A stretch of 64,000 bases of DNA from Nitrospirota bacterium (GTDB lineage Bacteria; Nitrospirota; Thermodesulfovibrionia; Thermodesulfovibrionales; Dissulfurispiraceae), in the NCBI GenBank assembly GCA_040754455.1, contig JBFMCP010000017.1:1-64000 (forward strand), given 5' to 3'. Position numbers and translations under genes: made by a program. How positions within the stretch are numbered: the first letter of the stretch is position 1; each line of letters begins with the position of its first letter. The notes below the pieces were generated by a model. The model was not told the DNA's origin. It worked only from the letters and a program-made list of their open reading frames with translations, and ran no database searches. Of this stretch, positions 1,131 through 52,860 are shown piece after piece.

Positions 1131-1946
1131 TTATCCCTCCTTCTCATTCTTGGATGATGCTGAGCCACCGCCGCTGTTGCCGCGGTTTCGGATATACGCA
1201 ATGGCCGCCAGAATAGTAATCAGTCCGCCCACTTTCATGGGGATTGTTTTCAGCATCGCCCAGGAGAGCGTCGGCAGTGCAACGTTGGGGATGTTTGTTT
1301 TGAAACCGAGCTGTTCAAAAGGAACTCCGGATATATACATCCATGAGGTCCCTCCCGCCTCGTCCTTGCCATAAATGTGATCCACGTATTTGCCGGGATT
1401 CTCCTTGATCCGCCGCTCGGCTTCTGCCACAACATCGTCGTAATTGCCGAAGTAAAGCGCCTTCGGCGCACAGGCCTTGACACAGGCAGGTGGCAATCCC
1501 TCTTCCTGACGGTCCGAGCAGAAGGTGCACTTCTGTACGATAGGAGAGATCTTTTCCCATTCATATTTCGGCACATTGAAGGGGCAGGCCATCATGCAGT
1601 AGCGGCAACCGATACAGCGTTCCGAAATATAGTTGACCGGCCCGTTGGGTTTCTTCTCGAAAGCGCCGACAGGACACGCCGATACGCAGGCCGGGTCTTT
1701 GCAGTGCATGCACTGAGTTTTAATGAAGTCCCAGCTGCTGATCATGTTGTCCTTTTCCGTCTCGACGAATTTTACGACGGTATAGGCTTCGGAATTCATA
1801 TCGACCGGATTGGTGAAGGTGCCGTTCTGCACTGTCTTTTTGACCGAGCGGCCGTTCCAGCTTTTGCATGCGATCTGGCAGCTCCGGCAGCCTATGCATT
1901 TGGTAAGATCGACGAGTACGCCTTTTGGTTGTGCAATCGTTGCCAT
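1131..1946 (-). CDS. Formate dehydrogenase iron-sulfur subunit (FdnH/HybA family, 4x[4Fe-4S]) with C-terminal transmembrane helix
   Basis: CIGCRSCQIAC, CMHCKDPACVSACP, CIGCRYCMMACP and KCTFC...PACVKAC motifs; hydrophobic C-terminus; adjacent to the catalytic subunit. Confidence 0.92.
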   Translation of the reverse strand: MATIAQPKGVLVDLTKCIGCRSCQIACKSWNGRSVKKTVQNGTFTNPVDMNSEAYTVVKFVETEKDNMISSWDFIKTQCMHCKDPACVSACPVGAFEKKPNGPVNYISERCIGCRYCMMACPFNVPKYEWEKISPIVQKCTFCSDRQEEGLPPACVKACAPKALYFGNYDDVVAEAERRIKENPGKYVDHIYGKDEAGGTSWMYISGVPFEQLGFKTNIPNVALPTLSWAMLKTIPMKVGGLITILAAIAYIRNRGNSGGGSASSKNEKEG

Positions 1947-1954
1947 GGTTCCTC

Positions 1955-4900
1955 CTATGCCTTTGCCTTTTCGATGTTGACCATGAATGCCTTCGATTCA
2001 GGGATCATAGTGTTCGCATCACCGATGGTCGGCGTCAGGAGATTCGAGCTGTCACCGCCGCTCCCGTCCTCGGGAAACTGCCACCCGAAATGCCAGGGAA
2101 GCCCGACCTGGTGCACGGTGGAACCGGCAACCTTGAAGGGTTTGAACCTCTTCGTCACAACCGCGATCGCCCACACTTCACCGCGCGCGGATTTCACCGT
2201 CACCTTGTCGCCGCTCTTGATCCCCTTCTCTCTGGCGAGCTCTTCGCTCATTTCGACAAACTGCTGCGGCATCGCCTCGAGGAGCCAGGGCACATGCCTC
2301 GTCATAACACCGGTCTGCCAGTGCTCGGAGACGCGGTAGGTGGTGCCGACATAGGGGAACCGTATATCGCAGGAGAGATAGACGTCCTCCAGGTTTTTTC
2401 CGCCTTCGGCAAAGAACATCTTGACTGCAGGGTTGATCCGCTGCTTCGACATGATGTTTTCCTGCAGCGGACACTCGAGCGCCTCATAGTGCTCGGGGAA
2501 AGGACCATCGTTGAGTCCGGGGCCGAAGAGCGCACCCATGCCGTCAGCCCGCATGATGAAGGGGTATTTTCCCTTCTCATTATTGTAGGGCGGCGCAGGT
2601 CCGTCGGGGACATCTCCTTCCCAGACACCGGGCTTGTTGGTCTTGGGATCCAGCTTGGCCGGGTTCCATGAGAGGAGGGGCCGGTTCGGGTCCCACGGCC
2701 TCCCTTCCGGGTCAACAGAAGCCCGATTGTAGATGATCCTTCTGTTGACCGGCCAGCTCCACGCCCATTCGGGATAGAGACCCAGCCCAGTGGGATCGGT
2801 CTTCTTCCTCCGGGCCATCATGTTGGTGATCTTGCCGTCCTTCTGGGTGTAGCTCTGGCAATAGATCCAATTGCCCGATGAGGTCGTACCGTCATCCTGC
2901 AGATGGACAAAGGTGGCGCAGAGCTCGCCTTTCTTGCCGAGCAGGGCTGGCGGATTCGCCTTCTTATCATAAACATCGTCGAGATAGTAGCCATTGATCT
3001 CTTTCGCTATCTCGTGGACATTTACCTCTTTGATCTTGCCGTCTGGTCCTTTGTGGCCGTAATTCCAGGTTAGGTTCACGATCGGAGCAGGATACGTGCC
3101 GCCCTTCTCCTGGTAGAGCCTCTTGACCCGGTAGTAGAGCTCATTGATGATCTCGGCATCGGGCTTTGACTGGCCTATAGGCTCGATGGCCTTATAGCGC
3201 CACTGCGCCCAGCGGCCGGAGTTGGAGATGCTGCCCTCTTTCTCCACTGACGAGCAGCAAGGGAGCATGAAGACTTCGGTCTGGACCTCCTTGGGATTCA
3301 TGCCGGGACCTCTCCAGAACGAAGCGGTCTCGTTGTCGAAGAGGTTAACATTGACCATCCACTTCAATTTACTGAGAGCCTTTCTCGTTTTGTTGGCATT
3401 AGCCCCCGAGCATGCGGGGTTCTGGCCCCAGGCAAAGAAGCCCTCGAACTTGCCCTTGAGCATCTGGTCGAAGAGCATGAGCCATGAAGCGTTCATGCCC
3501 TCGTCGAGCTTCGGCAGCCAGGCATAGCCGAAATCATTCTCCTTCGTCGCATGAGGACCGTAAATTGCCTTCAGGTAGCTGGTGATGTATTTGCCTCTGT
3601 TGCCCCACCAGTTGACGCTTTTCGGGTCCTTTGTCGTAGGAGTATGCTTTTCGATATATCCTTTGAGGTTAGCAAGTGACGCCGTTGGTGTAGGGAGATA
3701 GCCGGGCAGTATATGGAAAAGAAGACCGTAGTCCGTCGAGCCCTGGACGTTTGATTCGCCTCGCATTGCATTGATGCCGCCACCGGGCATACCGATATTG
3801 CCGAGCAGGAGCTGGATGATCGCCATTGCTCTGATGTTCTGGGTGCCGACGGTGTGCTGCGTCCAGCCCATAGCGTAGCATTCGGTGCCGACTCTGTTCG
3901 GCTTTCCGGTGGACGCATAGAGTTTATACACCTCAATGAGCTTGTCCTTCGGTGTTCCGGTAATGCTCGAGACTTTATCGAGCGTATAACGGGAGTAGTG
4001 CTTCTTCAGGAGCTGGAATACACAGTTTTTGTCCTTAAGGGTCGGATCTTTCTTAGGAATGCCGTTTTCATCCATCTGGAAGGACCAGGCCTTCTTGTCG
4101 TATTTCCTGGTCTTCGCGTCATACCCGGAGAAGAGGCCGTCAAGCTCGCCGGGACCTTTGAAATCGGGGTTGACGAGGAATGAGGCATTGGTGTACTTCG
4201 CGACATACTCCCTGAAATAGAGATTGTTGTCGAGAATGTACTTGATCATGCCGCCCAAAAAGGCGATGTCCGTTCCCGATCGGAGGGGAGCATAGAGATC
4301 GGCTTTCGAGGCGGTCCTGGTGAAGCGTGGATCGACGACGATGAGCTTTGCCCCCCTCTCTTTCGCCTTCAATATCCATTTCATCGATATGGGATGGTTC
4401 TCGGCGGGGTTGCTTCCCATAACGAGGATGACATCCGCATTCCGGAGATCGATCCAGTGGTTCGTCATTGCACCGCGACCGAGCGACTCTGCCAGAGCCG
4501 CTACTGTAGCGCTGTGTCATATTCGGGCCTGATGTTCTATATAAACGAGCCCCAATGAACGAAGCCATTTCTGCAGGATGTAGCACTCTTCGTTGTCAAG
4601 TGCAGCGCTGCCGACATGGGCGATGCCGTCGGTCCTGTTGACGACGAACTCCTTCTCGACCTCGACGTCGACGCCGTCAGGACCCTTCTCTTTCACTTTC
4701 GATTTGGAAGTGACTTTGAATGTCCTGTCGCGGGTATCTTTTACCTTCCTAGCGATCTCATCGAGCGCCCAGTCCCACTCGACCTCTTTCCATTTATCAG
4801 AGCCCGGCGCGCGGTAGAGCGGTTTGGTGATGCGCTTTTCATTATTAACGAGTTGGTAGAGCGATGAGCCCTTCGAGCAGAGCGCCCCTTCATTAATAGG

Positions 4901-5122
4901 ATGTTCCGGGTCGCCCTCGGTGTTGACCACTCTGCCGTCAACGGTGTGCACTAAGATGCCGCAACCGACCGAGCAATAAGGACAGATAGTAGTGGTCTCC
5001 TTTGCGTTCGTGGTTTTCAGCCCCTTGGCGTATGCCATTGCTGGATCGAGATTAACAGCAGCGGTGCCGGCAAAGAGCGATCCGCCTGAGAGCTTGAGGA
5101 AATCACGTCTTGATAACCCCAT
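1955..5122 (-). CDS. fdnG: Formate dehydrogenase alpha subunit, Mo/W-bisPGD selenoprotein with Tat signal (joins ORFs 4517-5122 and 1955-4468; about 1055 aa)
   Basis: Tat motif SRRDFLK; CPYCSVGC Fe-S motif; in-frame TGA at 4517-4519 in EHQARI-U-HSATVAALAESLGRGAMTNHW, matching the FdnG Sec site; downstream RGESNVQG. Confidence 0.95.
4482..4502 (-). promoter_or_regulatory. Bacterial SECIS hairpin
   Basis: AGCGGCTCT-GGC-AGAGTCGCT stem-loop starts 14 nt 3' of the in-frame UGA. Confidence 0.8.
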
Positions 5123-12158: not shown

Positions 12159-13157
12159 TTACAGTTCTGCCGTGATCTTTTCTATTTCGCGTTGTATGAG
12201 TGTCTCGGCGACTTCGGGAACGATCTTTCCGATAGCGGCATTGATGTCGCGGTGCAGGGAGGCGAAATGTTCGTTCACCAGTTCTCTCGTCACCCGTTCG
12301 ATAATGCCCGGCGCAATCTCCGAGAGGGTCCGTGCCACCGACTCCTGTATCGCTGCGGAGAGCGACGGCGCTACTTCGCGATTGATCACATCGGCGATCT
12401 TCTCATCCACTGACTGTTTCACGACTTCGAGGATATCCTCGCTCGACGGCAGAGCGATTGTTGCCGCTCCCTGCTCGGGCTGGACAGGGTACGGAGCGGC
12501 GGTCTCTTCCTTTTCCTCCATAGCCATGGAGAGCTCTTCTGCAAAGTCCTTCGCCGTTTCTGAAAGTGCGACTTTCGACTCGTACTCCTCGTCGGCAGGC
12601 TCATCCGCAGCAGCAGTCACCGTCTGCTGCTCCTTCAGTGCCGCATCCCAGTTGATCTCTTCTTCCTGGGCTTGCGGTGCGGGCTGCGCTGCAGCAGCTG
12701 CTGCAGCGGACCCGGAAACAGCCATAGGCTCTTCTTCATGTACCACTTCCTCGATCGCGGGTTCTGCCGTTGCCTGCTGCGGCGGAACGGCGCTGATCAA
12801 CAAGGATTTCACCTTGCTGATCAGCTCCTGCGATTCGAAGGGCTTGATAATGAAGTCGTCCGCACCCACGGCTTTGGCGTATTCCTCATCAAAGGGCTCG
12901 AAGGCGCCTGCAAGGAGGATCACCGGGATATGGGCAGTAGCCATATTACTCTTTATCTTTTCGCAGAGCTGATAGCCATTCAGCTTCGGCATCTCGATGT
13001 CGGCGAGAATAATGTCCGGAGCAAACGTCTCAATGGCCTGGAGCGCCTGCTCGCCGTCGTTTACCGCTTTGATCTCGAAATGTTCATGAACAAGGACGAG
13101 CTCGACCACTTTCTGGATGGTAAGACTGTCATCGGCCAATAAAAGCTTATTTTGCAT
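12159..13157 (-). CDS. Response regulator with RomR-like architecture (receiver, acidic Ala/Pro linker, helical C-terminus)
   Basis: Start chosen at MQNKLLLADDS (ATG 13157, purine-rich SD); receiver D and KP motifs; C-terminus IGKIVPEVAETLIQREIEKI. Confidence 0.85.
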   Translation of the reverse strand: MQNKLLLADDSLTIQKVVELVLVHEHFEIKAVNDGEQALQAIETFAPDIILADIEMPKLNGYQLCEKIKSNMATAHIPVILLAGAFEPFDEEYAKAVGADDFIIKPFESQELISKVKSLLISAVPPQQATAEPAIEEVVHEEEPMAVSGSAAAAAAAQPAPQAQEEEINWDAALKEQQTVTAAADEPADEEYESKVALSETAKDFAEELSMAMEEKEETAAPYPVQPEQGAATIALPSSEDILEVVKQSVDEKIADVINREVAPSLSAAIQESVARTLSEIAPGIIERVTRELVNEHFASLHRDINAAIGKIVPEVAETLIQREIEKITAEL

Positions 13158-13223
13158 CCACCCTTCCCCCTTCTGCTGCATGAACGGCATCGCCACAGAT
13201 TTTAGAGGTACCGCTGCAATTTG

Positions 13224-20914: not shown

Positions 20915-21047
20915 CGGCGTTGGTTGTTCACGTCCTTCGATTGTAAGATACTCATGATTAAGGTTATAGTAAAAAACCGGGAGGAAGCAAGAAAAGAGGG
21001 ACTATCCTTACCGTCTGAATTTTCTGCTTCTGGTGGATTCTTTAATC

Positions 21048-21890
21048 ATGGGATACTACGAATTCAAAATCACCGTGGCCGATGAATCGAGAGACGCCCT
21101 TCTGCAGGGTATCTCTGCTATCGGCTGTCTCGGCGTCGTTGAACACGACGGGTCACTTACCGCCTATTTCTCGGATACCATCGGTATCGATGCGATAAGA
21201 AAAGGATTGGACGCATTCAGAGGAGTCCTCGCGTCATCCGGCCTGAATTCGGATATTGCCTACGAATATGTCTTCATCTCCGAACGCGACTGGAACGAGT
21301 CGTGGAAGAAAAAATTCAAGCCCATCGATGTGGGCGAGCACTTCTCGATCCTGCCGCCATGGGAGGAGAAGGTCGCAGGACGCATCAATCTGATCATCGA
21401 TCCCGGTATGGCCTTCGGCACCGGGCACCACGAAACCACAAAAACCTGTCTCCTCTACATCGAGCGGTTTTCCCATCGGGTCAGTAAAGAGCGCTTCCTC
21501 GACGTCGGTACCGGGACCGGCGTTCTCGCCATAGCCGCCTCATTCCTCGGTTTTGCCTCTGTCCTCGGCGTCGATATCGACCCGCTCGCCATCGATGCTG
21601 CACAGAGGAATGCCAGGCACAACAACCTGAAGAATGTGGAGATCAGGGAGGGCAGCATCACCACTGCCGGAGGCACCTATGATTTCATTGCAGCAAATCT
21701 CATGTCAGAGATACTCATCAGCATAGCCCCTGAATTAGCCTCCCGACTCACCCCCTCGGGTGTCGCTCTCCTCTCCGGCATGATCGTCGGCCAGGAGGAT
21801 GAGGTCATTGCCGTTATGGAGAACGCGGGGCTGCGCTACCGGGAAACGTTTATCGACGGCAGGTGGGTGACGGTGATCATGAGCCGTTAA
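21048..21890 (+). CDS. prmA: Ribosomal protein L11 methyltransferase
   Basis: DWNESWKK, IDPGMAFGTGHHETT and LDVGTGTGVLAI motifs. The start may instead be 21033. Confidence 0.95.
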   Translation: MGYYEFKITVADESRDALLQGISAIGCLGVVEHDGSLTAYFSDTIGIDAIRKGLDAFRGVLASSGLNSDIAYEYVFISERDWNESWKKKFKPIDVGEHFSILPPWEEKVAGRINLIIDPGMAFGTGHHETTKTCLLYIERFSHRVSKERFLDVGTGTGVLAIAASFLGFASVLGVDIDPLAIDAAQRNARHNNLKNVEIREGSITTAGGTYDFIAANLMSEILISIAPELASRLTPSGVALLSGMIVGQEDEVIAVMENAGLRYRETFIDGRWVTVIMSR

Positions 21891-21997
21891 CTTCCATCCC
21901 TCTTGCATTTTCAATGGGTAAATTGCCCCTCTCCATGGTGCGATTTCACCCAACAAGCTCAGAAATTGACGCAACAGGTCTATTATTTTTAACGAAC

Positions 21998-22016
21998 CCT
22001 GTTGAAAAACAACAGG
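21998..22016. promoter_or_regulatory. Palindromic operator candidate upstream of the sigma54 promoter
   Basis: CCTGTTG-AAAAA-CAACAGG; half sites CAACAAG (21951) and CAACAGG (21972) lie 21 bp apart. Confidence 0.45.
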
Positions 22017-22045
22017 CACCGGAACAAGCCGCTGCAACGCTTTCC

Positions 22046-22061
22046 TGGCACACGGATTGCT
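22046..22061 (+). promoter_or_regulatory. Sigma54 (-24/-12) promoter
   Basis: TGGCAC-ACGGA-TTGCT with exact GG-N10-GC spacing, in an intergenic region. Confidence 0.8.
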
Positions 22062-22072
22062 CCTCACTGCAG

Positions 22073-22378
22073 TGCTAGACTCTTTGGGGCAGTGTGACGA
22101 ACGCTTTCTGCCGGAGACCCTCAAGAGAAGGTCTGCCGGGAAAGAACTCTCAATGCGAGTGAGCATGTCCAAAGTGCCTCTCAGAGTGATCTTTGAAAAG
22201 AGATTATTGCACGACAATGTTCCAGGAAGGACGAGAGGGCAAAAGCCACGAGAGGAGCGGCTATCGACTACCCTGGACAGGGTCATGCATTATTCATGAG
22301 GGCCATGCAAAAGGACCGGCGTACATGTGCGATCGCGAGCGATATTACCGGAAGCCTTTTGGATGGCTTTTTTGTTTT
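22073..22378 (+). ncRNA. Candidate sigma54-dependent structured ncRNA, about 300 nt, family not recognised
   Basis: Bounded by the sigma54 promoter and a terminator; several long stems visible; no ORF with an SD or recognisable product. Confidence 0.55.
22352..22378 (+). terminator. Intrinsic terminator
   Basis: AAGCC-TTTTGGAT-GGCTT followed by TTTTGTTTT. Confidence 0.65.
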
Positions 22379-22455
22379 GAGCAGGTCAATAAAAAAAACA
22401 ACGGCGCTCTCCTGTTATAATGAGTTGAAGGCACCAACCTGGACCGGGGGTATCT

Positions 22456-22692
22456 GTGAGCGAGGCGGAAAAAAAAGAAGAGGGTCGTACTGTTGAGCGG
22501 ACCATCGATTTCGGCGACAAGCGCTATATTATCAGAAGAACAGATGCGCTCACGACGGTGATCAGGACTGATACGACGACAGGTGATGAACAGGTGATCA
22601 GCCGCTGCTGGGGCCTGGGAGATATGGACAACTACGAGTTTGAACCTGCGACGGAAACACTGAGATCAAAGCTTCGTTTTAAGAATAAATAA
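22456..22692 (+). CDS. Hypothetical small protein (78 aa)
   Basis: GTG start with GGGGG SD; extended -10 TGTTATAAT about 40 nt upstream; converges with ychF. Confidence 0.65.
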   Translation: MSEAEKKEEGRTVERTIDFGDKRYIIRRTDALTTVIRTDTTTGDEQVISRCWGLGDMDNYEFEPATETLRSKLRFKNK

Positions 22693-22707
22693 GCCGCTTT
22701 CGGGCGA

Positions 22708-23805
22708 TTATACATTAAACCTGAAATTGATGATGTCCCCGTCTTTAACCTCGTAGGTCTTTCCTTCGAGCCGCAGATGCCCCCTGTCGCGTGCCGCAGC
22801 CATAGAACCGTCGGCAATGAAGTCATCATAGCCCACCACCTCTGCTCTGATAAATCCACGTTCTATGTCCGAATGGATCTTGCCTGCCGCTTTCTGGGCA
22901 TTGGTCCCCCTCGTAATCGTCCATGCCCGCACCTCGTCTTCCCCGCTGGTAAGGAAGGAGATGAGCCCCAGAAGGTCATAGCTCACTTTTATCAATTTGT
23001 TCAGGGCCGGCTCTTCAATACCGAGGTCATCGAGAAATGCCCGTGCCTCATCCGGGGAAAGCTGGGCGATCTCCATCTCGATCTTTCCGCAGAGCACCAC
23101 TACTTTTGTCGTTTCCGCGACGCCCCTTTCGGCAATGAGCGTTTCGACGCGCCGCTGCAGGTCTGCCGCGCGCTCGGTATTCAGCTCTTTCTCACCGAGG
23201 TTGATCACGATAACCTCGGGCTTTGTCGAGACGAACTGGAGCGGCTTCATGAGTTTCTGTTCTTCCTCATCAAAGTGCATGTTCCGCAGGGGTATCTCTT
23301 TTTCGAGGGCTTCCCTGCATTTCAACAGGAGCTTCTTTTCCGCCTCATTGGGCTTCTTGCCCTTCTTTGCACTTTCCTCCATGCGCTCGAGCCGCTTCTC
23401 GACAAACTCGAGATCGCCAAAGACCAGCTCCATCTCGAGCGTCTCGACATCGCGCAGGGGATTCACCTCGTTCATCGGATGAGAGATCGAGGCATCTTCA
23501 AAGGCGCGCACGACGTGGACAATAGCATCCACATCCTTGATCAGGTCAAAGACCTTCCTGTTCTGCGCGACATCGCCCTTGGTGAGCCCGATGTAATCGA
23601 CATATTCGACGGTAGCGTAGGTTATCTTCTTGGGCCGGTAGATTTCGGCAAGCCTGTCGACGCGGTCGTCGGGGACTTTCACCACGCCGTAATTCGGTTC
23701 GCCGCTGATCGTAGGATACGTTGTCGTTTCGAGGTTCTGTCCCGTAAGGGCGTTAAAGATAGTGGTCTTGCCTGAATTGGAGAGTCCGATGATCGCGAGC
23801 CTCAC
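22708..23805 (-). CDS. ychF: Redox-regulated ATPase YchF
   Basis: GLSNSGKTT, VPDDR, EVRAWTI and AAGKIHSDIERGFIRAE motifs; C-terminal FRFNV. Confidence 0.95.
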   Translation of the reverse strand: MRLAIIGLSNSGKTTIFNALTGQNLETTTYPTISGEPNYGVVKVPDDRVDRLAEIYRPKKITYATVEYVDYIGLTKGDVAQNRKVFDLIKDVDAIVHVVRAFEDASISHPMNEVNPLRDVETLEMELVFGDLEFVEKRLERMEESAKKGKKPNEAEKKLLLKCREALEKEIPLRNMHFDEEEQKLMKPLQFVSTKPEVIVINLGEKELNTERAADLQRRVETLIAERGVAETTKVVVLCGKIEMEIAQLSPDEARAFLDDLGIEEPALNKLIKVSYDLLGLISFLTSGEDEVRAWTITRGTNAQKAAGKIHSDIERGFIRAEVVGYDDFIADGSMAAARDRGHLRLEGKTYEVKDGDIINFRFNV

Positions 23806-30455: not shown

Positions 30456-30518
30456 GGAGAATTATATCAAACCTTGCGTATTGGGGAGATATTTTGGAGT
30501 TCATGGAAGGTTAGGAGT

Positions 30519-30674
30519 AGGCAGGAATGGGTGCGGAGAGGAGCTTTATCGCGCCTCCTTAGCTCCCACAAAAGCGTCGCACTCTTGAGAACGCTATTCG
30601 TTACGGAGAAGTGCTCCATATCTCTTCCAATAAATCGCGCATTAGAAAGCTCCTTGGAGTACCCGTTCCTGCCT
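30519..30674. repeat. 156-bp element with long terminal inverted repeats (structured RNA or MITE-like)
   Basis: AGGCAGGAATGGGTGC pairs with GTACCCGTTCCTGCCT, then AGGAGCTTT with AAAGCTCCT, then GCGC with GCGC; small inner hairpins. Confidence 0.7.
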
Positions 30675-30766
30675 TTAATCTTCGCTTCTATGCATCTCCC
30701 CCTTGCATATGTCCTGTATATATCAATCACACAAGATATCATAAAAACCGAGGCGTGTATGACGCC

Positions 30767-45417: not shown

Positions 45418-45436
45418 ATGTCCTCCTATGTAAAAA

Positions 45437-45585
45437 CAGTGTCAGTGATAAGTGTCAGCAAAAGAAGCAGCGACAATGTCAGTGTCAGACGTTATTTGAT
45501 TTTTTCTTTTTCTGACACTGACACTAAACACCGGCACTGTTTTCCTGATACTTGTCACTGACACTGATACTGTTTCTCTGACACA
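45437..45585. repeat. Hexamer-period (AGTGTC/GACACT) nested palindrome
   Basis: Perfect 13-bp inverted repeat 45477-45489/45511-45523 inside a 22-bp inverted repeat 45437-45458/45545-45566 (2 mismatches). Confidence 0.8.
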
Positions 45586-45609
45586 GAGATGAACTTGAAA
45601 TTATACTCT

Positions 45610-45978
45610 TTAATTCCTTCTTCTTTCAAGTATAACCGTTGCTATAGCGTACCCGCGTTCGTGGGAAAGGGTGACGTGGCAGGCGAGCGCACTTCCGATA
45701 TATTTTTTCAGCCGGCTGTTGAAATTGATGAAGGGTTTCCCCGTCTCTTTGTTCGCCACTTCGATATCATGAAACGGCACCGCCTTGCCCAGTGCTTTGA
45801 TAAAGGCCTCTTTGGCGGCAAAACGTGCAGCGAGCGAAGGGATGGGATCTTTTCTTCTGTAGCAATAGGCAATCTCGTGGTCGGTAAATATTTTATGCAG
45901 CAGCCGGTCGCCCCAGCGCTGCACCGCATGCCGCAATCTTTCAATGTCTATGATATCGGTTCCTATGCCGTAAATCAT
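45610..45978 (-). CDS. acpS: Holo-ACP synthase
   Basis: MIYGIGTDII, ARFAAKEA, GKP and TLSHE motifs. Confidence 0.95.
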   Translation of the reverse strand: MIYGIGTDIIDIERLRHAVQRWGDRLLHKIFTDHEIAYCYRRKDPIPSLAARFAAKEAFIKALGKAVPFHDIEVANKETGKPFINFNSRLKKYIGSALACHVTLSHERGYAIATVILERRRN

Positions 45979-46001
45979 GGAGCGACCTGTTCGTGACAGT
46001 A

Positions 46002-49266: not shown

Positions 49267-52200
49267 ATGCTGTTAGACTTAAGTATAGGCGTATTCTTTA
49301 ACTCTGAGCTCCACCAAACGGTTTCACCCTCATGGTCCGGTGAAAAGGACGACAGCGGAGAGTTCATCTCTTCGGGAGACAGCACCGTGTGCGCAGAACT
49401 ATACGATCCGAAAAAGATTAAGGTGGGTGACCTCGACTTTGCAACATTGTTCGAGCCCCGGATCGAAGAGGGCCGCATCTTTTTCAATAGAAGAAGAGCC
49501 GTCATCATGGACGTTGCAGCGCTGGGAGCTCTACGGCAGCAATTGATCGATATGCTGGGAGAGGAGCTGGCGATGGGGGCCCTCTCCCGATTCGGCTATG
49601 CCCACGGCTGCAGTGATGCGATGATGCTGGGCGAAAGCTTTTCCTGGGAGACCGAAACCGATTGGCTTGCAGCCGGACCGTCTCTCCACACCCTCGAAGG
49701 CATCGTCCATGTTACCCCGCAGAAAATAGAGTTCGACCGCGCTTCCGGCCATTTCCATATGTACGGCGTTTGGCTCAATTCGTACGAGGCCGAGGTCCAC
49801 CTCACACTCCGCGGTAAGAGTGATCACCCGGTCTGCTGGACGCTTACCGGGTACGCGTCCGGGTACGCGAGCAGTTTCTTCGGGCGCGAGCTGTTGGCGA
49901 TCGAGACCGAATGTGCCGGCAAAGGAGATCCGCACTGCCGATGGGAAATCCGTCCTGTTGCCGGGTGGGGCCCTGAGGCCGAGCCGTATCTGAAGACCCT
50001 CAAGGCGGTGGATGTGCTGAACCAGCTCCAGCAGGCTCAACTGGTAGGTGCGCGCTTCCGCGATATGGCACTCAGCAGCGCTGATTGGGTCTGGGAGACG
50101 GATGCTGCAGGCCAGTACACCTATTGCTCCGGAGAGGTGAGGAGTGTTCTCGGATACGATCCCGGACAATTGATAGGCAAAAGCCTCTTTGATTTCATGC
50201 CGTCTGACGAGGCAGCCCGCGTCAAGCGCATCTTCGATGCGAGCGTCGTGAACAAGAAGCCGATCGTCGATCTGGAGCAACGCGTCCTTGCACAAGACAG
50301 ACGGGAAGTTGTGCTGCTGATCAACGGCCTTCCCGTGATCGACCGTGAGAATCGTACGACGGCTCTGCGTGGAATAGCAAAAGATATCACCCAGCGCAAA
50401 CAGATTGAGCAGTCTCTGCAGGAGAGCCGGAGACGGGCAGCCTTCCTTGCAGACCTACTCGAACGCTCCTCCCAGCCTTTTGCCGTCGGGTATGCAGACG
50501 GGAGACTGGAACTGGTCAATGCCGCCTTCTCACAGCTCACCGGATACGGCAAGGAGGAATTGATGACCATCGACTGGGCCCGGACGCTTACTCCTCCGGA
50601 ATGGAGGGCTATCGAGCAGGAGAAGCTGGAGGAATTGACCCGTACCGGGCAGCCGGTACGCTACGAGAAAGAGTATATCCGGAAGGACGGCTCCCGCGTG
50701 CCGGTAGAGCTTTTTACACACCTCATCAGGGATGAGCGGGGTCAAACACGACATTACTATTCTTTTGTCACGGATATTACTGAACGCAAGAGGGCCGAAA
50801 ATTCCCTTAAAGAGAGCGAGGAGCGGCTGCGGCTCTTCATCGAGCACGCTCCGGCAGCCCTGGCCATGTTCGATCGAGAAATGCGCTATTTGAGCGCAAG
50901 CCGCCGCTGGATGAGCGACTACGGCCTCGACGATCGCGACCTGCGCGGGCTGTCACACTACGACGTCTTCCCTGAGATACCCGAGCGCTGGAAGGCGGTC
51001 CACCGTCGAGCACTCGCAGGCGAGGTAATACGGTCCGATGCAGACCGCTTCGAGCGGGCCGACGGCTCGGTGCAGTGGCTCCGGTGGGAAGTGCGGCCGT
51101 GGTATCACGCGACGGGCGATGTGGGGGGGATTGTGATCTTCAGCGAGGACATCACCGAGAGGAAGCTTGCAGAGGAGACATCACGGGAAAAAGAGTTCCT
51201 GCTCTCCGAATCCCAGCGGATAGCCAACATCGGCAGCTGGAGCTACGATGTGGTGACAGGGCATGCACAATGGACACCCGAGACGTACCGCATCTTTGGC
51301 GTTTCCCCCGACACCTTTGCCCTCTCGCTCGAATCATTGCTCAGCCTGATCCATCCCGAAGACAAAACAGCCATGCAGGAATGGATTCGCGCCGCCTTGT
51401 CGGGCGAAGGGCCGGGAGATCTTGAGTTTCGCATTATCCGGCCTGACGGGAGTATCCGTTTTCTCAGCGGCAGAGGCGGTATGCACTACGACGTCGAGAA
51501 CAGGCCGGTCCGCCTGATGGGTACCGTGCAGGACATCACCGAGCGCAAAAAAGCGGAAGAGACCATCAGGTATCAGGCGTATCATGACCTGTTGACCGGC
51601 CTGCCCAATAGGGCACAGCTTATGCTGGCATTGCGCCACGAGACAGCAGAGGCAGAGCATCACCGCAAACTGTTCGCCGTGCTCCACCTGGATATCGACC
51701 GGTTCAGGGCGATCAACGAATCCCTGGGCCACGCCGTCGGCGATAAGGTCATTCTTGCCGTCAGCGAGCGATTGCAGTCGCTTGTTCGGAAGAACGACAC
51801 GCTTGCACGCGTCGGGAGCGATGAATTCATCATCCTGCTTGCATCCCTTGACCGCGCTGAAGATGCTGCACTCATTACACAGACCATTGTCACAGCTATG
51901 AGGAGGCCTTTCAGGATTGACGAGCGGGAACTCTATGCAACGGCGAGTATCGGCATCAGCATGTATCCGGAAGACGGCAGGGATACCGATATGCTGCTCA
52001 AAAACGCCGACATTGCCGTCTCGCATGCAAAGGAGCTCGGGAGAAATACCTATCAGTTTTTCAACCCTGCCCTCAACAGAAGGACGGTCGAACGGTTGCT
52101 CCTCGAAAACAACCTGCGCCAGACTGTTGAACACAATGAATTGGTCCCCTACTACCAGCCGCAGGTGAATATCAGAACAGGCGAGATCATTGCAATCGAG

Positions 52201-52860
52201 GCGCTGGTGAGGTGGCGACACAGCGCCCTCGGCATCATCGGACCCGCTGAGTTCATTCCGGTGGCTGAGGAAATCGGTTTTATTTCTTTCATAGATGAAT
52301 GGATGTTGAGAACGGCCTGTGCCCAGACCAGGGCCTGGCAGAAGGCCGGGCTCCCCCCGTTCAGGGTGACGGTGAATCTTTCCACGCAACAATTTCAGAA
52401 ACCGACCCTCGTCCACATGATAAAAGACATCCTCAACGAAACCGGGCTGGAAGCACGGTATCTGGAGATCGAGATTACCGAGAGCACGGCCATGCGCGAC
52501 ATCGACCTTGCGGTTCCGAACCTTAAAGGTCTTCACGAAATCGGCGTTGCGCTCTCCATCGACGATTTCGGCACCGGCTATTCGTCGCTGAGTTACCTCA
52601 AGAGATTCCCGCTCTACAAGCTCAAGATAGACCAGTCATTCATACGGGATGTACCGAAAGATCCGGATGACCAGGCGATTGTCAGAGCAGTGATTGCCAT
52701 GGGGCATAATCTCCAGTTGCGGGTCATTGCCGAAGGGGTGGAGACCGAGGACCAGTTGTCGTTTCTTAAAGCGAACCGTTGCGACGAAATACAGGGCTAT
52801 TTGTTCAGCGAGCCGCTGCCCCCCGAAAAACTCGAGGAATTCATCGAATCACGCACGTGA
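49267..52860 (+). CDS. XylR_N/V4R - 4xPAS - GGDEF(GSDEF) - EAL signalling protein
   Basis: EEGRIFF..RR, RFGYAHG, AGPSLH, CWTLTGYASGY and ETECAGKGDPHC motifs; four PAS/PAC units ending DITxRK; EALVRW and DDFGTGYSS. The start is uncertain and may be near 49417. Confidence 0.9.
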   Translation: MLLDLSIGVFFNSELHQTVSPSWSGEKDDSGEFISSGDSTVCAELYDPKKIKVGDLDFATLFEPRIEEGRIFFNRRRAVIMDVAALGALRQQLIDMLGEELAMGALSRFGYAHGCSDAMMLGESFSWETETDWLAAGPSLHTLEGIVHVTPQKIEFDRASGHFHMYGVWLNSYEAEVHLTLRGKSDHPVCWTLTGYASGYASSFFGRELLAIETECAGKGDPHCRWEIRPVAGWGPEAEPYLKTLKAVDVLNQLQQAQLVGARFRDMALSSADWVWETDAAGQYTYCSGEVRSVLGYDPGQLIGKSLFDFMPSDEAARVKRIFDASVVNKKPIVDLEQRVLAQDRREVVLLINGLPVIDRENRTTALRGIAKDITQRKQIEQSLQESRRRAAFLADLLERSSQPFAVGYADGRLELVNAAFSQLTGYGKEELMTIDWARTLTPPEWRAIEQEKLEELTRTGQPVRYEKEYIRKDGSRVPVELFTHLIRDERGQTRHYYSFVTDITERKRAENSLKESEERLRLFIEHAPAALAMFDREMRYLSASRRWMSDYGLDDRDLRGLSHYDVFPEIPERWKAVHRRALAGEVIRSDADRFERADGSVQWLRWEVRPWYHATGDVGGIVIFSEDITERKLAEETSREKEFLLSESQRIANIGSWSYDVVTGHAQWTPETYRIFGVSPDTFALSLESLLSLIHPEDKTAMQEWIRAALSGEGPGDLEFRIIRPDGSIRFLSGRGGMHYDVENRPVRLMGTVQDITERKKAEETIRYQAYHDLLTGLPNRAQLMLALRHETAEAEHHRKLFAVLHLDIDRFRAINESLGHAVGDKVILAVSERLQSLVRKNDTLARVGSDEFIILLASLDRAEDAALITQTIVTAMRRPFRIDERELYATASIGISMYPEDGRDTDMLLKNADIAVSHAKELGRNTYQFFNPALNRRTVERLLLENNLRQTVEHNELVPYYQPQVNIRTGEIIAIEALVRWRHSALGIIGPAEFIPVAEEIGFISFIDEWMLRTACAQTRAWQKAGLPPFRVTVNLSTQQFQKPTLVHMIKDILNETGLEARYLEIEITESTAMRDIDLAVPNLKGLHEIGVALSIDDFGTGYSSLSYLKRFPLYKLKIDQSFIRDVPKDPDDQAIVRAVIAMGHNLQLRVIAEGVETEDQLSFLKANRCDEIQGYLFSEPLPPEKLEEFIESRT

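Follow-up and report, generated by a model that had tools for sequence, protein, structure and literature searches.

Several small RNAs (sRNAs) depend on sigma54 and on an enhancer-binding protein (EBP): Qrr1-5 (LuxO), CrcZ and CrcY (CbrB), GlmY (GlrR), NrsZ (NtrC) and Pxr. In Desulfovibrio vulgaris, Dv_sRNA2 is a target of the response regulator DVU0679, and predicted sigma54 promoters ahead of unannotated sRNAs or ORFs are marked as well, according to a part of PMC3333781. In section 5 of PMC3162934, sigma54 is described as almost never missing from diderm, LPS-bearing bacteria, and RpoN is listed for the single finished Nitrospirae genome in Table 1 of PMC3372290. A search of the literature on small RNAs in Thermodesulfovibrionia-type Nitrospirota returned nothing on-topic among the matches listed. 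By analogy, sigma54/EBP-dependent sRNAs are the closest known kind for the candidate RNA described here.

The window, that is, the whole stretch of DNA analysed, comprises 64,000 nucleotides of a Nitrospirota contig. Within it, the convergent genes prmA and ychF are separated by a spacer of 817 nt (21891-22707), which contains the candidate RNA and a 78-aa ORF, ORF78. A sequence-only reading of the window had proposed that the spacer encodes an orphan, highly structured, signal-induced regulatory RNA transcribed from a sigma54 promoter. Inspection of the sequence showed that all the elements it claimed are present where it had placed them. The observation is confirmed. Its interpretation is partly supported: promoter, terminator, above-average structure and a non-coding interval agree with a signal-induced regulatory RNA, whereas the suggestion of a sponge and the word orphan were not supported. 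ORF78, which lies between the RNA and ychF, had not been mentioned. The features of the locus are as follows.

21033-21890, plus strand: prmA, ribosomal protein L11 methyltransferase (Pfam PrmA, E 7e-63); left border of the spacer.
21916-21950 (about -156 to -122): two weak palindromes, GGGTAAATTGCCC at 21916 and GGTG-N6-CACC at 21937.
21972-21978 (plus), 21998-22004 (minus) and 22010-22016 (plus): three CAACAGG heptamers, -100 to -56.
22046-22061, plus strand: sigma54 -24/-12 promoter TGGCACacggaTTGCT, an exact match to the consensus.
22072-22378, plus strand: predicted non-coding transcript of ~300 nt, lying between promoter and terminator.
22079-22187, plus strand: 5' multi-branch domain, found in the MFE and centroid structures and stable in co-transcriptional snapshots.
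22188-22205, plus strand: short hairpin GAUCUUU-GAAA-AGAGAUU of the predicted fold.
22208-22290, plus strand: long interrupted hairpin of the predicted fold, UGCACGAC..UGUUCCAGG pairing with CCUGGACA..GUCAUGCA.
22293-22378, plus strand: intrinsic terminator (-32.1 kcal/mol), a three-way-junction hairpin followed by UUUUUUGUUUU.
22413-22421, plus strand: extended -10 element of the sigma70 type, TGTTATAAT, a consensus match that precedes the start of ORF78 by 35 nt.
22456-22692, plus strand: ORF78, a 78-aa ORFan with a GTG start and GGGGG 7-11 nt upstream.
22708-23805, minus strand: ychF, ribosome-binding ATPase (Pfam YchF-GTPase_C, E 4e-36, and MMR_HSR1); right border of the spacer.

The reading that we favour, with slightly less than an even chance of being right (about 0.45), is that the spacer is a lineage-specific insert carrying an independent, EBP-gated and terminator-bounded sRNA of ~300 nt together with a separately promoted ORF78. 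In such a scheme, RNA polymerase-sigma54 would rest as a closed complex at the -24/-12 site and would fire only once an EBP, encoded elsewhere, has been activated by its signal. The activator would probably bind the three CAACAGG heptamers. The transcript would fold into three hairpin domains and then stop at the strong intrinsic terminator. The RNA could act in trans as a signal-induced regulator, via base-pairing or protein binding, and ORF78 would form a second unit with its own extended -10 promoter. The case rests on strong signals that coincide in one sequence.

The sequence-only reading had described a consensus -24/-12 promoter, and the match is indeed exact. When both strands of the 64-kb window were searched with the pattern TGGCAC-N5-TTGCW, this site was the sole exact match, against 0.05 expected, and any exact match was found in 5 of 100 shuffled windows. 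Allowing one or two mismatches brought the number of sites in the window to chance level, and weight is therefore given to the exact match only. From the GC at -13/-12, transcription is predicted to start at ~22072. The consensus is not found in the prmA-ychF spacers of relatives; the six matches in 80 related loci all lie elsewhere. In one of these loci, L020, a long sensor-like ORF has its ATG ~15 nt downstream of a consensus sigma54 site (1560-1630, minus strand; TGGCACatgaaTTGCT), which leaves an unusually short leader, and in L025 a canonical site lies ~115 nt before an ORF. Such canonical sites directly upstream of ORFs count for the favoured reading. Genome-wide binding of sigma54 has been studied in Salmonella and in E. 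coli (PMC3844500 and PMC4551910).

Upstream of the promoter, the sequence CCTGTTG-N5-CAACAGG (21998-22016) is a perfect inverted repeat, with arms of 7 bp on either side of 5 nt. The CAACAGG heptamer occurs 15 times in the window, against 5.9 expected, and three of these copies are located within 45 nt upstream of the promoter. The cluster is a reasonable candidate for the enhancer (UAS) of an EBP. The centre of the palindrome, at ~-65, is nearer to the promoter than typical enhancers are, which counts against the favoured reading. The three upstream palindromes previously pointed out are all present and the one at 21998 is perfect, whereas those at 21916 and 21937 have short or imperfect arms; the latter two may be further putative activator sites. 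A scan of 62 ORFs of the window found neither rpoN nor an EBP (PF00158), and this also counts against the favoured reading. XylR_N and V4R domains are typical of sigma54 activators. At 49267-52860 (plus strand), the window encodes a 1197-aa protein in which XylR_N and V4R sensors are fused to PAS-GGDEF-EAL, not to a sigma54 AAA+ domain.

Folding of the segment 22073-22380 gave a minimum free energy (MFE) of -109.6 kcal/mol, as compared to -93.6 +/- 5.7 for shuffled sequences (z -2.83), and none of 100 shuffles was as stable. Every one of the nested stems listed by the sequence-only reading appears in this MFE fold. The outer stem of the 5' domain consists of GACUC/GAGU and UGGGGC/GCCUCU and encloses the hairpin CUUUC-CCGG-AGACC / GGUCU-CCGG-GAAAG (22104-22144), while the apical region of the long hairpin at 22208-22290 is purine-rich. 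For the reverse complement, folding is no less unusual (z -4.17). Since folding energy picks no strand, the strand is assigned from the promoter and the U-run. We also took 1276 segments of 300 nt from across the window, folded them and regressed their energy on base composition. The segment 22101-22400 ranked 24th on the plus strand and 15th on the minus strand of 1276, within the top 2%, and several coding or intergenic segments outscored it. The structure signal is high without being extreme, and the claim that can be made from folding is a moderate one. "Highly structured", the term used earlier, holds in the sense of above-average folding, but the folding is moderately unusual and is not strand-specific, which counts against the favoured reading.

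The MFE structure represents 0.06% of the ensemble, whose mean base-pair distance is 40; the individual hairpins are credible and the global fold is poorly defined. In MFE folds of the transcript cut at eight end points, the three upstream domains were unchanged with or without the terminator. At the same eight end points, no antiterminator competing with the 5' arm of the terminator was seen, MFE snapshots being a crude test of this. Independent folding of the domains and snapshots free of an antiterminator count for an independent sRNA. No tandem repeats were found in the RNA. A MITE-like repeated element was considered and rejected within the limits of the window, where the spacer has no second copy.

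Several other parts of the window showed unusual folding. The strongest outlier on both strands (z -4.6 and -4.2), 12601-12900, lies inside the response-regulator ORF 12159-13196 and is GC-rich with GCAGCAGC-type palindromes. Among the strongest outliers (z ~-4.2) is also the divergent intergenic region 45433-45587, between the ETF genes and the ORF 45589-45996, which contains an array of direct and inverted CTGACACTGA-like motifs, possibly an operator array or else a structured RNA. Between two minus-strand genes, the 310-nt spacer 30456-30766 is a further outlier (z -4.0) and contains 29-nt inverted arms at 30519-30547 and 30646-30674. Apart from folding, two molybdopterin oxidoreductase ORFs at 1955-5122 (minus strand), one with the Fe4S4 domain and one with the main body, share one frame and are separated by a single in-frame TGA (...HQARI-TGA-HSATVAAL...). 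From motif resemblance, this TGA looks like the selenocysteine codon of a formate-dehydrogenase-type enzyme.

The sequence-only reading had placed a U-tract terminator near 22378. A stable hairpin does directly precede the U-run, on the same strand as the promoter. A simple scan reports a hairpin at 22350-22371 with its T-run; folding reveals a larger, three-way hairpin (22293-22374; -32.1 kcal/mol) of which it is the tip, and termination is predicted at 22372-22378. The window has 176 T-runs of at least five, of which 87 are closed by a helix. Among these 87, the terminator ranks fifth by energy and has the densest T-run (10 of 11 positions are T; plus strand only). It is also the only one of the top 11 by energy that lies outside a called ORF. 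Located ~300 nt downstream of the promoter, it is the best intergenic hairpin with a U-run in the window. A loose terminator pattern is not enriched, with 15 found against 17.9 expected in 20 kb; this, together with the homologue searches reported below, which found none, counts against the favoured reading.

Downstream of the terminator, on the same strand, ORF78 starts after 77 nt. Its codon score, from the model described below, is 0.234, at the 22nd percentile of real gene fragments, and a search of 5.8 billion proteins returned only ORF78 itself, as two member sequences on two contigs. Because its codon usage is native-like and it is recorded in a protein collection, ORF78 is most likely a real gene, and the RNA is not an orphan in the strict sense, with a probable 78-aa gene so close on the same strand. 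AF2, run on the single sequence, predicted a four-stranded beta-meander with a pLDDT of ~80-87 over residues 11-50, followed by a disordered tail. ORF78 belongs to no family in Pfam, NCBIfam or PADLOC, a Foldseek search of the PDB gave no match with E <0.48, and the structure neighbours in the Atlas are single propeller-blade-like look-alikes only. With phmmer, 11 non-self matches were obtained among 1.84 billion representatives. These were rejected as homologues: eight of the 11 were scanned and proved to be Thr/Asp-rich repeat proteins (cadherin, kelch, NHL), and the matches were judged compositional.

The element TGTTATAAT between the terminator and ORF78 is a perfect TGnTATAAT, and its position counts for the favoured reading. 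TGnTATAAT occurs twice in the window, against 0.82 expected, each time with an ORF downstream on its own strand; the other copy, 30461-30469 (minus strand), stands just before a transporter gene. Pairing of the RNA with possible targets was scanned over 56 translation-initiation regions of the window, in which ORF78 ranked 14th, prmA 10th and ychF 19th. This duplex scan is uninformative because accessibility terms are absent from it and the duplexes are implausibly long. The RNA and the ORF78 mRNA share short complementarities of 6-10 nt, which by our own estimate are at chance level.

The locus was compared with 80 loci recovered with the PrmA of the window, nearly all from Thermodesulfovibrionales-type MAGs (best PrmA identity 67%). 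A convergent arrangement of prmA and ychF like that of the window is found in 24 of the 80. In nine of these 24 (L001, L003, L007, L010, L015, L016, L028, L052 and L061), the two genes overlap tail to tail; in six, the gap is 25-140 nt and in the remaining nine it is 237-2441 nt, where the figures come from tblastn alignment ends and are accurate to a few bases. None of the nine long spacers is related to the spacer of the window, nor to any other of the nine apart from a single match of 46 nt shared by L004 and L066. Their cargo consists of DUF433 and DUF5615 in L004, a BrnT toxin in L006, Fic/DOC in L020, a GNAT acetyltransferase in L066, a spermidine-synthase-like protein and a ferritin in L063, and ORFs without a family in L008, L014, L037 and L041. 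Because this cargo is so varied and unrelated, the prmA/ychF junction is an insertion hot spot of the clade. The spacer of the window is one more lineage-specific insertion, and the inserted DNA may be young, given the nature of the junction, which counts against the favoured reading.

Relatives of the spacer were searched for in the 80 related loci, where blastn and nhmmer gave chance matches of 18-45 nt only, and tblastx against the relatives' spacers gave nothing below E 0.14. Single-sequence covariance models of 22073-22205 and 22206-22378, run over 670 kb, recovered themselves and four matches with E >2. No match to the spacer was obtained by blastn in plasmid and phage collections.

The interval could be thought to encode one or several small proteins, such as the 48-aa ORF 22154-22299, rather than an RNA acting as RNA. 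It does contain open frames of 80 aa (TTG at 22057), 48 aa (ATG at 22154), 75 aa and 66 aa. A codon log-odds model was derived from 38 long ORFs of the window, and fragments of real genes, 78 codons in length, score 0.32 +/- 0.13 in it; by contrast, the five plus-strand ORFs that lie within the interval or overlap it, and the minus-strand ORF, score from -0.54 to 0.00, at or below about the 1st percentile of real fragments. The sequence-only reading had named a conserved translated ORF, for instance at 22154-22299, as a finding that would speak against its own proposal; on codon usage, the frames of the interval score as non-genic. It had also stated that no ORF has a Shine-Dalgarno sequence, and inspection of the sequence found nothing GGAGG-like before the internal starts. 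The 80-aa frame begins upstream of the predicted transcription start, and neither this frame nor the 75-aa frame has a homologue, or even a record of itself, among 5.8 billion proteins. Because codon scores are non-genic, homologue searches are empty and Shine-Dalgarno sequences are absent, the interval is most likely non-coding, and we hold a coding function to be very improbable. An RNA product might in turn be a sponge of the CsrB/RsmY type, titrating CsrA via multiple GGA motifs, and its length is comparable with that of CsrB-type RNAs. The count of nine GGA triplets in 306 nt, on which this option had been based, is right, but there is no enrichment: 8.57 +/- 2.0 are expected and 51% of 2000 dinucleotide shuffles reach nine. 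Moreover, all nine GG dinucleotides are predicted to be base-paired, and the hairpin loops contain none of them. No csrA was found among the window ORFs scanned. Rfam includes CsrB/RsmX/Y/Z-type models; with Rfam 15 at gathering score, the only match in the whole window was a tRNA, and a permissive search of 21800-22800 gave a microRNA model as best match (E 0.74). The interval itself has no match at gathering score or at E <0.7, in line with the earlier statement that it was not recognised as tmRNA, RNase P, 6S or SRP RNA. The sponge is largely refuted by the GGA count and the pairing analysis, and we give it hardly any credence.

Other explanations of the locus turn on its context. If the RNA were the 5' leader of ORF78, under attenuation or riboswitch control, transcripts from the sigma54 promoter would mostly end at 22372, a ligand or an RNA-binding protein would remodel the leader to cause read-through, and the extended -10 element would be a second, basal promoter of ORF78. 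Promoter, long structured region, terminator and ORF are the classical attenuator layout, the strand is the same with 77 nt from terminator to ORF78 start, and ORF78 resembles a real gene. The RNA and ORF78 are, in addition, both confined to the insertion, so that they may have arrived and work together. We nevertheless consider a leader unlikely: the upstream domains do not change and show no alternative pairing at the eight fold end points, no riboswitch or leader family of Rfam matches, a hairpin of -32 kcal/mol makes a very stable terminator, and the perfect TGnTATAAT past it can serve ORF78 alone. The interval might instead be non-functional DNA recently inserted at a hot spot, with incidental hairpins and a sigma54 site that either matches by chance or is bound unproductively by the holoenzyme. 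None of the relatives has the spacer, 15 of the 24 convergent pairs overlap or are at most 140 nt apart, the other nine hold unrelated cargo, and the fold is about as stable on both strands without being extreme. The genome-wide sigma54 binding studies mentioned above are also on this side, many sites in Salmonella and E. coli reportedly not being tied to productive promoters. Against it, an exact consensus, a triple of heptamers and the best intergenic terminator follow one another on one strand with no ORF between them, a combination that chance is very unlikely to produce. In GC content (0.49-0.52), the spacer matches its surroundings, and ORF78 has native-like codon usage. Inert DNA is, in our judgement, an improbable account of the locus. 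It is quite doubtful that the RNA and ORF78 make up a new kind of two-gene accessory module, in which the EBP/sigma54-gated RNA would neutralise, sequester or otherwise control the small all-beta ORF78 protein, whose constitutive synthesis would be driven by its own extended -10 element. Such a module would place an RNA-ORF78 pair at a junction where relatives hold toxin-antitoxin-type cargo and would be, if true, a signal-switchable RNA-protein pair without relatives in current databases.

The reading of an independent sRNA with a separately promoted ORF78, if the RNA is transcribed as predicted, would provide a sigma54/EBP-controlled regulatory RNA in Thermodesulfovibrionia-type Nitrospirota. 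It would also be a case of regulatory RNA genes arising at an insertion hot spot, as cargo specific to a strain. The practical value is limited because the organism is apparently known only from assemblies and the RNA structure has no supporting homologues.

As compared with known systems, the candidate shares with CsrB, RsmY and RsmZ a multi-hairpin architecture, a size of a few hundred nucleotides and a terminator, but its GGA motifs are neither enriched nor located in loops. CsrB, RsmY and RsmZ are, moreover, driven by GacA/UvrY-type sigma70 promoters and not by sigma54. With attenuation leaders and riboswitches, it has in common a structured RNA, an intrinsic terminator and a same-strand ORF 77 nt downstream. 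It differs from them in that no antiterminator was seen in the truncated MFE folds and no aptamer family matches, and in the extended -10 element past the terminator; a sigma54 promoter is unusual for such leaders. The order of promoter, RNA gene, terminator and protein gene recalls type III toxin-antitoxin systems (ToxIN-like), as does the junction, where relatives hold toxin-antitoxin-like cargo. In contrast to these systems, the candidate RNA has no tandem repeats, and ORF78, with only 78 aa, matches no toxin or defence family. An assignment to type III toxin-antitoxin systems was rejected on the absence of tandem repeats and of any Pfam, NCBIfam or PADLOC family for ORF78.

The sigma54/EBP-dependent sRNAs remain the nearest. 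Dv_sRNA2 is located downstream of the gene of its regulator, as far as the relevant part of PMC3333781 goes, whereas the candidate has no adjoining EBP gene. The candidate also differs from these sRNAs in matching no Rfam family in sequence or structure, in having no conservation found outside its own genome, and in having no demonstrated A-rich or GGA pattern of protein-binding motifs. What it shares with them is a -24/-12 consensus with nearby repeated upstream sites, leading into a predicted non-coding transcript that ends at a terminator. With ~300 nt, its size is nearest to that of CrcZ (~400 nt).
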